Below, one piece after another: positions 26,314 to 54,809 of a stretch of DNA of 64,000 nt; positions within the stretch are counted from its first letter, which is position 1; every line of letters begins with the position of its first letter. A model generated the notes under the pieces. That model saw nothing but the letters and a program-made list of their open reading frames with translations, made no database searches and had not been told where the DNA came from. The translations under genes were made by a program, and so were the position numbers. This stretch comes from Collinsella sp. (GTDB taxonomy: Bacteria; Actinomycetota; Coriobacteriia; Coriobacteriales; Coriobacteriaceae), in contig JBKTTM010000006.1 of NCBI GenBank assembly GCA_047247485.1, positions 197,246 to 261,245 of the forward strand, read 5' to 3'.

Positions 26314-26634
26314 TTACTGGCCAATCCAGTGCTGCGCATAGCTCTTAATGTCCTCGGTAAAACCGTCAAGGTCGTCAAGGGTAATCACGCTGTCGATAAG
26401 CAAATTGGCTATCTCGCGGTGCATTGTGCTGCGGCGAATGTCGTTTGCAATTACGCCTGAGGACAGCTTGTTTCTATTGAGGCTCTCTTCTAGTGCCCAA
26501 AATCTACTGGACGCTTCGCTGTCGCCATTCAGTATCTCAACGTACTGGCCGATGAGCTTTTCCATATAACGTTCTTGCCATTGAGGAAGCATTTTCTTAA
26601 ACAGCTTCCAGTCGCTTTCGGCTACGTCGCGCAT
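26314..26634 (-). CDS. Small hypothetical protein
   Basis: 106-aa ORF MRDVAESDWKLFKKMLPQWQERY...; GGAGGA RBS; lower GC. Confidence 0.6.
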   Translation of the reverse strand: MRDVAESDWKLFKKMLPQWQERYMEKLIGQYVEILNGDSEASSRFWALEESLNRNKLSSGVIANDIRRSTMHREIANLLIDSVITLDDLDGFTEDIKSYAQHWIGQ

Positions 26635-26752
26635 ATGTCCTCCGCTCGTCAAACGGGCTTTTCATTTGCCTTCCATTCTATTTGGTTTTCGCTCGCAAGC
26701 GTGGATGAGAGGCTCTCTTTAGCCTTCGAGATAGGGCTTGAATGGGTCGTAT

Positions 26753-26802
26753 GCCACAAAATGGGCCTATCTACTATGTTTAATTGGATACCCTCAACCA
26801 TG
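26753..26802. repeat. Left arm of the host palindromic element interrupted by IS110
   Basis: 26753-26783 matches the reverse complement of 28441-28471 at 27/31 positions; CAACCATG pairs with CATGGTTG (28422-28429). Confidence 0.8.
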
Positions 26803-26842
26803 CCGGGAAAACAAAAAACAAAACCGACGCTCCTATAAGTTG

Positions 26843-28081
26843 TCAAGAGGCAGTTTGCGGGAGCGCTCTCTCCAATTCGCACAGGAGCTCGTAATACCTC
26901 CTCTCCAGTTTCGTCGACCGCCGTTTCCCCCGTTCCAAGTGCCCGAGTGTGGCTGCGGACAGGCCGAGCTCCGCGGCGGCTTTCTTCTGAGTCACCCGCA
27001 TCGCCTTGCGCATCTTCGCGAGCTCGGGGCCTTCCGGCGCGGCGCCGTCGGGGTTCGGGTCCATGAGCACGTGGTACACCTCCCGCGCTATGTAGCGCTT
27101 CAGGCAGCGGACCGCCTCCCGCCGGGACTTCCCCTCGGAGGTCCGCCTCGCCACGTACCTCCTCGTCCTCTCGTCGTACGCCATGCGCTTGATCGCGATC
27201 TCGTAGAGCGCCCAGTTCGCCTGCCGGTTGCCGCCGCGGTTGAGCCTGTGCCGGTCCGTCTTCCCGCTCGACGCGGGGATCGGGGAGGCGCCGCACATCA
27301 TCGAGAACGCCGCCTCGCCCTTCAGCCTGCCGGGGTTGTCGCCGGCGGCCACGACCAGGGCGGCGGCGGTCGTGGTGCCGCAGCCCTCGACGCCGAGCAG
27401 CGCGGGCGCGTTCGCCTCCAGCAGCGCGCGGATGCGCTCGTCGAGGGACTCGACCTGGCTGCGGGCCTCCTTCCAGACCGCCGCGACGGACCGCAGCGAG
27501 GCCAGCACGCTCTCCTCGAGCGCGTCGCCCGCCTTCCTCCCGCGCGCGAGCAGCGGCATGAGGTCCTTCGGCCGCTCGCGGCCCCTGAACCGCTCCCTCA
27601 GGGCGCTCGGGGCCGTCGTGAGCATCGACTTCGCGCAGGCCACGCAGGACGTGGACGTCGCGACGGCCAGCCTGCGCGCGACGTAGAGCTGGCGCACCGC
27701 CTCGACCCAGCCGTCCTGCGACTTCGGCACGGAGCAGCCCTTCCCGGACGCCGCCTTGCGCGCCGCGCGCTCGGCGTCCAGCGGGTCGCTCTTCCCCTCG
27801 CCGGGCCTCACCTTGTCCCTCTTGGGCCTGAGCACCTCGACGACGTTGTACCCGAGCTCCACGAGCCTCCTCGTCAGCCCGGCCCCGTACGATGCCGTGC
27901 CCTCGACGCCGACGACCATGCAGCTCCCCGGGTCGCCTATCGCCTCCGCCAGCCTGTCGTAGCCCTCGGGGTCGGCCCCGAAGCTCCCGCTCCAGATCTT
28001 CCTCCCGAGGCCGTCGAGCAGGCACAGAACATGCACGTCCTTGTGCGTGTCGACGCCCGCGATGACCGTTTCGCCTTCCAT
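26843..28081 (-). CDS. IS110-family recombinase/transposase with C-terminal XRE-type HTH
   Basis: GVDTHK (D), VGVEGTASYG (E), KSDPLDA (DD), PIPASSG catalytic Ser, RLNRGGNRQAN; tail ELAKMRKAMRVTQKKAAAELGLSAATLGHLERG; GGGGAG RBS. Confidence 0.93.
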   Translation of the reverse strand: MEGETVIAGVDTHKDVHVLCLLDGLGRKIWSGSFGADPEGYDRLAEAIGDPGSCMVVGVEGTASYGAGLTRRLVELGYNVVEVLRPKRDKVRPGEGKSDPLDAERAARKAASGKGCSVPKSQDGWVEAVRQLYVARRLAVATSTSCVACAKSMLTTAPSALRERFRGRERPKDLMPLLARGRKAGDALEESVLASLRSVAAVWKEARSQVESLDERIRALLEANAPALLGVEGCGTTTAAALVVAAGDNPGRLKGEAAFSMMCGASPIPASSGKTDRHRLNRGGNRQANWALYEIAIKRMAYDERTRRYVARRTSEGKSRREAVRCLKRYIAREVYHVLMDPNPDGAAPEGPELAKMRKAMRVTQKKAAAELGLSAATLGHLERGKRRSTKLERRYYELLCELERALPQTAS

Positions 28082-28099
28082 TTTCGCTCCCCTCGGTCT

Positions 28100-28370
28100 G
28101 CCGCCTGCTCCGCGCCCGGGTCTCCCAGACATTGCACTGACGGGAGCGCTACAATCCAATTGGCTTGTCCGATTGTCCGCGCTCATGCTCCTATTAGGTC
28201 ATGGCAGGACTCCGGGACGCGGATGCCGGGGCGAGACAGGTCGGATTTGAGGACGGCCGAAGAGGCGTCAGCAGGTCAGTGGGTCATCGTCCCGGCATTC
28301 AGCATCAGGGTAGCGCTGCGACGCGGAAATCGCGCGCCGTTGCCGCGCCCCGCAGTGCCCGCTTCCCCCG
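28100..28370 (-). ncRNA. Predicted IS110 bridge RNA (5' stem, target-binding loop about 28223-28298, donor-binding loop about 28125-28204)
   Basis: Two stem-internal loop-stem domains whose loop segments match the IS ends and the flanking target; RNA ends not determined. Confidence 0.78.
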
Positions 28371-28421
28371 AGAACAATTATCAGTGCAGGTAGAAGGCCT
28401 GTCGATTTTCGAAAAGGCGGT

Positions 28422-28471
28422 CATGGTTGGCCCCATCGAGTTAAACGTAGTAGATGGCCCCATTTCGTGGC
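28422..28471. repeat. Right arm of the host palindromic element interrupted by IS110
   Basis: Inverted complement of 26753-26802. Confidence 0.8.
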
Positions 28472-28523
28472 GGACCATCAAACGAACGCCGATGCTTGTG
28501 CTGTAGCCGCTCCGATCATACGT

Positions 28524-28592
28524 AAGTTGCGGTGGAATAGTTCCTAGATTCAGCCATTTGCGGGCTAAGCAGGAACTATTTCACCGCAACTG
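28524..28592. repeat. 69-bp palindromic repeat, family B, copy 2
   Basis: AAGTTGCGGTGGAATAGTTCC...GGAACTATTTCACCGCAACTG. Confidence 0.85.
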
Positions 28593-28652
28593 AATTTCAG
28601 GCCAGGCACCCGCAGCAAGAAGACGAATAACCTCGGCGAGTATGTAAACGCA

Positions 28653-28749
28653 GGGCCCTCCGACCCCGCCCGACGATTTCGATTGGCGACCTTTGACGGA
28701 GTCAAGGGAGGAGCCAAATCGAAATACGTCGGGCGGGGTCGGAGGGCCC
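28653..28749. repeat. Long rod-like inverted repeat downstream of pfkA
   Basis: GGGCCCTCCGACCCCGCCCGACG...CGTCGGGCGGGGTCGGAGGGCCC with further inner pairing. Confidence 0.8.
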
Positions 28750-54679: not shown

Positions 54680-54809
54680 TTTCGGAAGTGCGGGGAAAAA
54701 CGCGAACCTCCTGAGCACACCGCCTTTTTAGACTCTCGCGACCTGCGGTTTTGTTGTAAAAAAAGCCGGTCTGGTCGGCGAAACCCGATTTTTCCCCGCA
54801 CTTCCGAAA
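54680..54809. repeat. MITE-like element with 21-bp terminal inverted repeats
   Basis: TTTCGGAAGTGCGGGGAAAAA / TTTTTCCCCGCACTTCCGAAA with central ACCTGCGGTTTT. Confidence 0.72.

Follow-up and report, generated by a model that had tools for sequence, protein, structure and literature searches.

Why would a recombinase of the RNA-guided IS110 group carry a regulator-like helix-turn-helix (HTH) domain at its C-terminus? The question is raised by an insertion sequence (IS) on contig JBKTTM010000006.1 of Collinsella sp. (GenBank assembly GCA_047247485.1), a member of the Actinomycetota. We analysed it within a stretch of 64,000 nucleotides (positions 197,246 to 261,245 of the forward strand), hereafter the window, to which all coordinates refer. 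An earlier note, written from the sequence alone, had read the element's gene as an IS110 recombinase fused to an additional XRE-type HTH domain and had suspected an uncharacterised subclass; its further suggestion, that the HTH might contribute DNA recognition or autoregulation, is taken up below among the candidate explanations. The first of these readings is borne out by the Pfam cut-offs that the protein passes, by a confident fold and by neighbours of the XRE type only, and the second by the distribution of the tail among relatives described below.

The recombinase core and its C-terminal tail

The minus strand holds a single long open reading frame (ORF), 26843..28186, which amounts to 447 aa when counted from its first ATG. 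Homologues begin at the position equivalent to MEGET, that is, at the ATG at 28081, which is preceded by GAGGGGAG at 28087-28094 and yields a protein of 412 aa followed by a TGA stop (26843..28081, minus strand); the upstream in-frame ATG at 28186 falls within the donor-binding loop of the RNA. HMMER searches with the three Pfam models that the earlier note had named as a check return matches to all of them. In the 447-aa form, DEDD_Tnp_IS110 (PF01548) covers residues 43-190 (E 2.1e-18, 67 bits against a cut-off of 29), Transposase_20 (PF02371) covers residues 262-345 (E 6.3e-16) and HTH_3 covers residues 389-423 (E 6.5e-6, 26.5 bits against a cut-off of 23). The NCBIfam model NF033542 ('IS110 family RNA-guided transposase'; 165.7 bits against 140) extends over residues 43-376 of the same form only and stops there, so that the tail lies outside the NCBIfam IS110 model.

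In the numbering of the 412-aa form, the RuvC-like DEDD domain occupies residues 8-155 (27617..28060, minus strand), as recognised by PF01548 and by the Foldseek match to IS621 and ISCro4, and the Tnp domain core occupies residues 227-310 (27152..27403, minus strand), as recognised by PF02371, and contains two invariant serines. Long helices at 125-155 and 187-224 in the AlphaFold2 model make up the coiled coil. The residues D11, E60, D99 and D102, together with S271 and S272, are invariant in an alignment of 38 sequences, and the four acidic positions probably correspond to D11, E60, D102 and D105 of IS621, judging from its description. The full-length AlphaFold2 model, built on a 38-row alignment, has a mean pLDDT of 92.3 and a pTM of 0.85, and the top Foldseek matches of the core are IS621 and ISCro4 (E ~1e-11, target-normalised TM 0.73-0.79, ~20% identity). 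The Collinsella protein and these two recombinases (PDB 8wt6/8wt9 and 9t56) have the same three-domain core with its DEDD and Ser residues, and the protein is a complete IS110-group recombinase. They differ in that IS621 (328 aa) and ISCro4 (341 aa) end at query residue 352-355, where the linker begins, and have no fourth domain. The statement in the earlier note that canonical IS110 proteins contain only RuvC-like, coiled-coil and Tnp domains agrees with this; the bridge-RNA papers speak of recombinases of 'around 300-460 aa' with two Pfam domains or three structural domains.

The sequence after ...LKRYIAREVYHVL is exactly as the earlier note had quoted it, and the frame runs via DPNPDGAAPEGPE into the HTH tail. 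A Pro/Gly-rich linker (DPNPDGAAPE, residues 341-350; 27032..27061, minus strand) comes first, which shows the lowest conservation of all segments (mean pairwise identity 0.18 in the 38-sequence alignment), contains no helix in the AlphaFold2 model and has a block pLDDT of 79. It is followed by an XRE-type HTH domain at residues 351-406 (26864..27031, minus strand), with helices at 351-360, 365-372, 376-383 and 390-406 and mean pLDDT values of 87-97 in ten-residue blocks over residues 351-410; folded by itself, the tail reaches a mean pLDDT of 91.4. As an isolated 68-aa sequence it matches both HTH_3 (30.5 bits, cut-off 23) and HTH_31 (30.0 bits, cut-off 27), and the tails of other taxa (n=11) match HTH_31 in 11/11 and HTH_3 in 9/11 cases. 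Foldseek places the tail with the XRE-type DNA binders HipB, C.Kpn2I, C.BclI, C.AhdI, HigA and ClgR (TM 0.6-0.67), though the small size of the domain keeps the E-values poor (best 1.2e-2). In VIA-align the best score belongs to ClgR (Z 8.1, 56 residues at an rmsd of 2.5 A), essentially all rows being XRE or POU-specific domains. Thirty-eight solved sequences match a profile built on 11 tails at E <=0.01, the best at E 6e-8; nearly all are XRE-type HTH proteins, and one is a sigma factor. The XRE regulators ClgR, ImmR, C.BclI, HipB, P22 C2 and SinR share the sequence and fold of the tail, but they are free-standing and mostly dimeric repressors, whereas here the fold is a four-helix C-terminal appendage of a recombinase. 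The tail is almost certainly a bona fide XRE, or lambda-repressor-like, HTH, which follows the three domains of the core as a fourth.

Across the 38 sequences, mean pairwise identity is 0.44 in the RuvC domain, 0.30 in the coiled coil, 0.55 in the Tnp domain and 0.32 in the HTH. Within the tail, R358 is present in 38/38, E383 in 37/38 and Y396 in 36/38 sequences, followed by S380 (31/38) and Q365 at the start of helix 2 (23/38); the basic loop after helix 3 is retained, and in helix 4 an aromatic residue at position 399 is conserved besides Y396. This pattern of conservation indicates that the HTH domain is real and under constraint. It also bears on the possibility that the fold has a role other than DNA binding, as a module for protein-protein or RNA contacts whose docking partner could be, for instance, the Tnp domain, a second protomer or a host factor. 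The conserved Y396 and aromatic 399 would fit such a role, helix-4 aromatics of this kind not being typical of XRE repressors to our knowledge, and the pTM of 0.85 together with the lower pLDDT of the linker block may mean a docked rather than a free domain. The R358/E383 pair, Q365, S380 and the basic loop, however, are traits of DNA-binding XRE domains, and all of them are kept; we consider a purely non-DNA role distinctly improbable. A prediction of tail-tail dimers (residues 345-412, two copies) scored 0.00 against a mark of 0.42, a result that gives no verdict and is evidence neither way.

Copies and relatives that carry the tail

The gene lies in an element of 1558 bp between its core dinucleotides (26827..28384, minus strand), delimited by comparison of ten copies, by unoccupied sites and by contig breaks. 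The ten near-identical copies in the 2.59-Mb genome differ at 3 positions only. Seven of them encode the identical intact protein, and the remaining three (cp5, cp7 and cp10) share an additional G that shifts the frame at codon 333, upstream of the tail. The extra G (GCGATC-G-AAGCGC; element position 1201, window ~27183-27184) is found at C6:2313498, C6:2069615 and C6:649064, three different sites, and frameshifted forms are also present in other assemblies (P0009 and P0012), a distribution that points to the spread of a defective variant, presumably with the intact copies acting in trans. The earlier note had named as the case against its reading a tail that occurs in this copy only, as a chance read-through. 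Such a read-through, or an annotation artefact limited to this copy, is effectively ruled out by the seven identical intact copies and by homologous tails in many lineages, which are kept across proteins 36-66% identical; moreover, a tail profile made from some lineages detects the tail in others.

A HMMER search against 1.84 billion representatives of 50%-identity clusters returned 16,094 relatives at E <=0.001, of which the best 146 non-self rows were inspected. Among these, a tail profile built from 20 sequences matches 34/118 representatives of at least 330 aa, and a C-terminal XRE-type Pfam match (E <=0.01) is present in 28/114. Contigs from one genome per species contain the tail in frame in 33/79 related loci, and together these counts turn the suspected subclass into a conserved one. 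The carriers among the 33 loci include many Collinsella, Rubneribacter badeniensis, Pseudoclavibacter helvolus, a Microbacteriaceae metagenome-assembled genome (MAG), Antricoccus, Candidatus Poriferisodalis and another Acidimicrobiia MAG. Further carriers, from cluster look-ups, are Gordonia, Nocardia nova and Microbacterium lacticum; a partial cluster entry bears the label Enterococcus faecalis. A collection of 5.8 billion proteins holds further proteins of 404-431 aa at 50-67% identity, many with PF01381 or an alignable tail, the named carriers being Parafannyhessea, Gordonibacter, Adlercreutzia and Coriobacteriales.

On plasmids, the tail region is covered in 19 of 1,590 matching records (72,556 plasmids searched), two of which were checked. 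Plasmid pTC2 of Paenarthrobacter aurescens is a true tail carrier (421 aa); an E. coli plasmid, the sole non-actinobacterial case, proved false, a stop codon preceding the aligned stretch. Relatives at E <=1e-30 are present in 44 of 301 evenly sampled Actinomycetota genomes, a tally that counts the Collinsella source genome and five genomes flagged unpublished, the latter contributing nothing further. Forty regions from 27 of the 44 contain the tail in four genomes, three of them from one genus, and no relative was found in the 6 same-genus, 2 same-family and 11 same-order genomes of the sample. All named carriers whose tail was checked in sequence belong to the Actinomycetota, and by this evidence the tail marks a conserved subfamily, found here only in that phylum.

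The history of the module was examined on a tree of core columns (111 rows), from which 17 representatives were removed as truncated or chimeric, as were rows outside 330-450 aa. The tail is present in 26/29 rows of one clade (SH-aLRT 96), in 7/8 of a second cluster and in a few scattered rows, which amounts to 9 changes of gain or loss by parsimony, at least five of them forced by well-supported branches. This tree is compatible with repeated loss as well as with repeated transfer of the module, and some of the losses may be truncated gene calls. The tail-less sisters (Acidimicrobiia, Dehalococcoidia, Alphaproteobacteria, Janthinobacterium and others) have cores that are 42-49% identical and ORFs that end 10-15 residues past the Tnp domain. 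No stand-alone HTH gene, as expected for a split form, was seen in the 46/79 loci that lack an in-frame tail or among the 29 tail-less loci inspected.

Carriers with a source name are labelled only 'IS110 family transposase', 'Transposase' or 'transposase', and the precomputed Pfam columns place PF01381 beside PF01548 and PF02371. The subclass is invisible in product names despite those columns, and its four-domain architecture is already implicit in the databases. A search of the full-text literature, with ISfinder/TnPedia, subscription journals and preprint supplements outside its scope, found no description of an HTH-bearing IS110 recombinase, and the words HTH and helix-turn-helix are absent from PMC11208160, 10.1101/2024.06.21.599552 and 10.64898/2026.08.14.744561. 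The HTH-bearing form of the IS110 recombinase is apparently undescribed.

Target, guides and ends of the element

Comparison of the copies with unoccupied sites defines both junctions on the minus strand. The left junction (28385..28391) consists of the target half-site ACCTG (28387-28391) and the core CA (28385-28386), and reads ACCTG-CA followed by CTGATAAT; at the right junction (26820..26826), ...ATAGGAGCGT is followed by CG-GTTTT, that is, the core CG (26825-26826) and the target half-site GTTTT (26820-26824). The genome contains 13 exact ACCTGCGGTTT sites without an insertion, against a chance expectation of about one, and ACCTG and GTTT(T) therefore belong to the target and not to the element. 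Boundaries assumed at first, ACCTGCAC ... GGTTT (1571 bp), were rejected because the unoccupied sites show those termini to be target; they placed the -35 and -10 boxes described below 29 nt apart, against 18 nt with the corrected boundaries. Contigs of other runs break at 26817-26820 and 28391-28398. The target is ACCTG-CG-GTTTT, and the ten insertions, at ACCTG-CR-GTTT, show two substitutions, ACCAG in the left target segment of cp10 and GATTT in the right target segment of cp9. There are no long terminal inverted repeats. An unoccupied exact ACCTGCGGTTT also lies elsewhere in the window, at 54741-54751 (0.01 expected by chance).

In common with IS621 and ISCro4, the element has a predicted upstream non-coding RNA with target and donor guides, inserts site-specifically without terminal inverted repeats and prefers palindromic repeats. 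It differs from them in its unequal junction cores, CA on the left and CG on the right in 10/10 copies. Only the first core base is duplicated, and the core in most unoccupied sites is CG. The G+C content of the element is 68-76%, against 48-59% in its immediate flanks, and this contrast, together with the lack of a match in related sampled genomes, is read as recent acquisition. The element is almost certainly an IS110-group insertion sequence that has been amplified recently and looks both active and bridge-RNA-guided.

The putative bridge-RNA guide segments occupy 28135..28277 on the minus strand and were assigned by their covariation with target and donor ends. A second Collinsella family, whose protein is 51% identical, has the same ends (CA-CTGATAT and ATAGGAGCGT-CA, with CA at both junctions) and another target, ACATTCCG-CA-G. 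The left target guide GACCTGCTG (28269-28277) follows the target from one family to the other, reading ACCTGC here and ACATTCCGC in the second family, in each case the left half of its own target; another RNA segment, the right target guide CAAATCCG (28242-28249), differs in step with the right target half. The left donor guide TAATAGGAGCATGA (28183-28196) was assigned by comparison with the donor end, and the right donor guide is GTCAGTG (28135-28141). The RNA segments TAATAGGAGCATG and GTCAGTG are the same in both families, matching their common donor ends. The equivalent of GTCAGTG is reverse-complementary to its own left end over 6-10 nt in 8/8 families from three classes, a pairing that is realised in four sequence variants (CACTGA, CGTTGA, CACTCA and CATCAA). 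RNAalifold predicts stems closing the donor loop, with a compensatory change in 14/18 predicted pairs. The single-sequence fold of the 310-nt left end is uninformative (z-score -1.73), and an Rfam scan of 26500-28700 returned no bridge-RNA family, only weak chance miRNA/snoRNA matches on a neighbouring hairpin repeat at 28523-28593. The guide layout, as predicted from these comparisons, is the bridge-RNA arrangement described for IS621.

This copy is flanked by the arms of a host palindromic repeat, at 26752..26819 on the right side of the insertion and at 28392..28471 on the left, as identified by comparison of the repeat family. The centres of palindromic repeats contain 7/10 copies, five in the repeat family of this copy and two in a second family. 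Both host repeat families (~150 bp; one starts GCCACGAAATGGGCC.ATCTACTACGTTTAA, the other TTCAAAACTATGCCGGATTACGGGG) have ACCTGCGGTTT at their centre, and several of these central sites are among the 13 that are unoccupied. The second Collinsella family of elements (L049-L089) inserts directly after short hairpins of varied sequence, followed by (A)ACATTCCG. These hairpins recall the target stem-loop of ISPpu10, for which a 'sequence-structure dual match' has been described, in which the stem-loop adds to recognition (bioRxiv 10.64898/2026.03.19.712850). The extra layer of ISPpu10 lies in the DNA target, read by Arg178, Arg191 and Arg195 of the recombinase, and the available part of that source describes no extra protein domain; the Collinsella copies likewise lie in or beside hairpin-forming repeats.

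Such sites invite the explanation that the HTH supplies a second address, reading a defined motif in the target flank, for example in the repeat arms, or in subterminal donor DNA, so that specificity would come from protein plus RNA. The location of most copies in the centres of two palindromic repeat families, the insertion of the second Collinsella family just after small hairpins and the precedent of ISPpu10 for a structural layer of target recognition would all suit this explanation, as would the recognition-helix residues, which vary with family, the two Collinsella families having different targets. The three copies outside repeats, however, have no common flank motif beyond the 11-12 nt target, and the repeats themselves carry the 11-nt RNA-specified target, which is enough to explain the preference. 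Tail-less IS110 elements also target palindromic repeats (PMC12288879), and the conserved donor end is common to tail-less relatives. A second address is, in our judgement, improbable.

The ends of the element also carry promoter-like boxes. The earlier note had the stop codon overlapping the element end; the codon (26843-26845) is indeed near the end and lies within a -35-like TTGACA box (26841..26846, minus strand), an arrangement that recurs in related elements, but it is 16 nt inside the crossover. A -10-like box, GATAAT (28377..28382, minus strand), stands at the left end. In the integrated copy, a promoter scan pairs this box with TCGACA in the host repeat (28400..28405, minus strand) as the -35 of a predicted hybrid promoter that reads into the element (TCGACA-17-GATAAT, 10/12 matches), and two promoter-like sites were found where 0.2 are expected. 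Circularisation would assemble a TTGACA-N18-GATAAT promoter across the inferred junction. In four runs, represented by contigs only, there was no circle-junction contig and no clean empty-site joint for the locus, the listed joints having short sides (20-33 nt) in repeat DNA.

The right end is common to tail-bearing and tail-less relatives, in the form TTGAC-N4-5-ATAGGAGCATCA. Among the nine tail-bearing relatives inspected, five have their TGA stop inside a TTGAC(A) box, L032, L034 and L060 have a TAG stop inside ATAGGAG, and L023 has TAG just upstream of TTGACG. About half of the 29 tail-less relatives inspected share the right end, with the stop inside TTGAC(A/C/G/T), then 4-5 nt and ATAGGAGC(A/T)TC; they come from Dehalococcoidia, Alphaproteobacteria, Janthinobacterium and some Actinomycetota. 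Since tail-less relatives use the same right end, the tail is unnecessary for recognising the conserved donor end, and from this arrangement it appears as an in-frame accessory module between the Tnp domain and a fixed right end. The conservation of the right end spans IS110 elements of Actinomycetota, Dehalococcoidia and Proteobacteria (L028-L067 tail-less, L023-L062 tail-bearing), which is unusually strong for a donor sequence that is programmable in principle, and ATAGGAGC is also present in the upstream RNA of eight aligned tail-bearing families.

Two candidate HTH sites near the ends were considered and set aside. The arms of a subterminal imperfect inverted repeat, GATAATTGT versus TATAAGTTGT, are not equidistant from the core and fall on the -10 and -35 boxes, which leaves the candidate unsupported. 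The distance of TYGACAA from the core is 20 versus 17 nt between families, in step with the -10 box, and a promoter role explains this motif better than an HTH site does.

The same boxes underlie the explanation that the HTH is an autoregulator, which would bind an operator at or near the junction or the hybrid promoter and throttle transcription of the bridge RNA and recombinase. XRE domains are classically repressors, and the neighbours of the tail include the regulators ClgR, ImmR, C.BclI, HipB and P22 C2; the promoter boxes lie right at the element ends, with the stop codon in the -35 box; the ease with which the tail is gained or lost on the core tree is as for a dispensable regulator; and the recognition helices differ between families. 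No dyad-symmetric operator, however, is evident by eye around the ends, the tail-less relatives have the same promoter and end architecture, and a recombinase-RNA complex on the donor junction would presumably already occlude the promoter spacer. Taking both sides together, we regard autoregulation as unlikely and as the main alternative to the reading favoured below.

Further features lie outside the element. The hairpin repeat at 28523-28593 is ~70 bp long (arms 28525-28545 and 28571-28591) and has some 30 related copies in the genome; its weak false Rfam matches are to plant and animal miRNA models. Neither Pfam nor NCBIfam returns a match at E <=0.1 for a 112-aa ORF next to the element (26314-26652, minus strand). 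Downstream of a phosphofructokinase-like ORF, the two arms of a perfect 23-nt inverted repeat, GGGCCCTCCGACCCCGCCCGACG, are separated by a 51-nt spacer (28653-28749).

A candidate contact beside the RNA-paired site

The explanation that we tentatively favour, while giving it somewhat less than an even chance, is that the HTH serves as an accessory grip on duplex DNA, of low sequence specificity, beside the RNA-paired site. In IS621, residues of the Tnp domain, which terminates the protein, act as wedges at either end of the 14-bp RNA-paired window (PMC11208158), so that an HTH on a short linker would adjoin the flanking duplex. Donor and target DNA are bent to a U shape during insertion (PMC13626964), and in ISPpu10 the structure of the flanking DNA contributes to specificity. 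At a distance of ~10 residues from the Tnp C-terminus, the HTH would be next to the duplex that flanks the window in each of the four DNA arms, where it could strengthen binding and steady the bent arms in the synapse, target choice staying with the bridge RNA. Such a grip would be analogous to that of the C-terminal HTH of small serine recombinases. In those proteins (gamma-delta / Tn3 resolvase, Hin), a short arm connects the catalytic domain to a small HTH, whose grip on the DNA lies outside the crossover. The likeness extends to domain logic only: their catalytic fold is unrelated, their HTH is of another class and they use no guide RNA, and Pfam finds no Resolvase family match in the Collinsella protein.

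The composition of the tail is consistent with this accessory grip. It contains 14 Lys/Arg versus 7 Glu, as counted from its sequence, an excess that suggests nucleic-acid binding, and its recognition helix, built of small residues (SAATLGH), points to low specificity together with the lack of a common flank motif. Several considerations weigh against the grip. Sister elements that share the right end and RNA architecture evidently transpose although they lack a tail, and any contribution of the tail must therefore be dispensable. The residues of the recognition helix vary between families, a variation that could reflect operators particular to each element. Where the HTH would lie on the DNA is extrapolated from IS621 at ~20% identity, and both the grip and the function of the tail are predictions.

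Much effort currently goes into developing bridge recombinases as programmable tools for genome rearrangement, and the mechanistic and structural work that we found concerns three-domain proteins, namely IS621, IS622, ISCro4 and ISPpu10. If the tail is merely an autorepressor, the finding would be a modest addition to insertion-sequence biology. The existence of a widespread natural four-domain form raises the question whether a protein-DNA contact beside the RNA-paired window can alter affinity, directionality, fidelity or regulation. It is possible, although we would not put it at better than roughly one chance in three, that Actinomycetota possess bridge recombinases with a built-in protein-DNA contact beside the RNA-specified site, in which the HTH grips or reads the flank and raises efficiency or fidelity in GC-rich DNA. 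Were this true, the subclass would be a natural version of 'fuse a DNA-binding domain to the recombinase', and one that would be transplantable to IS621- or ISCro4-type editors.

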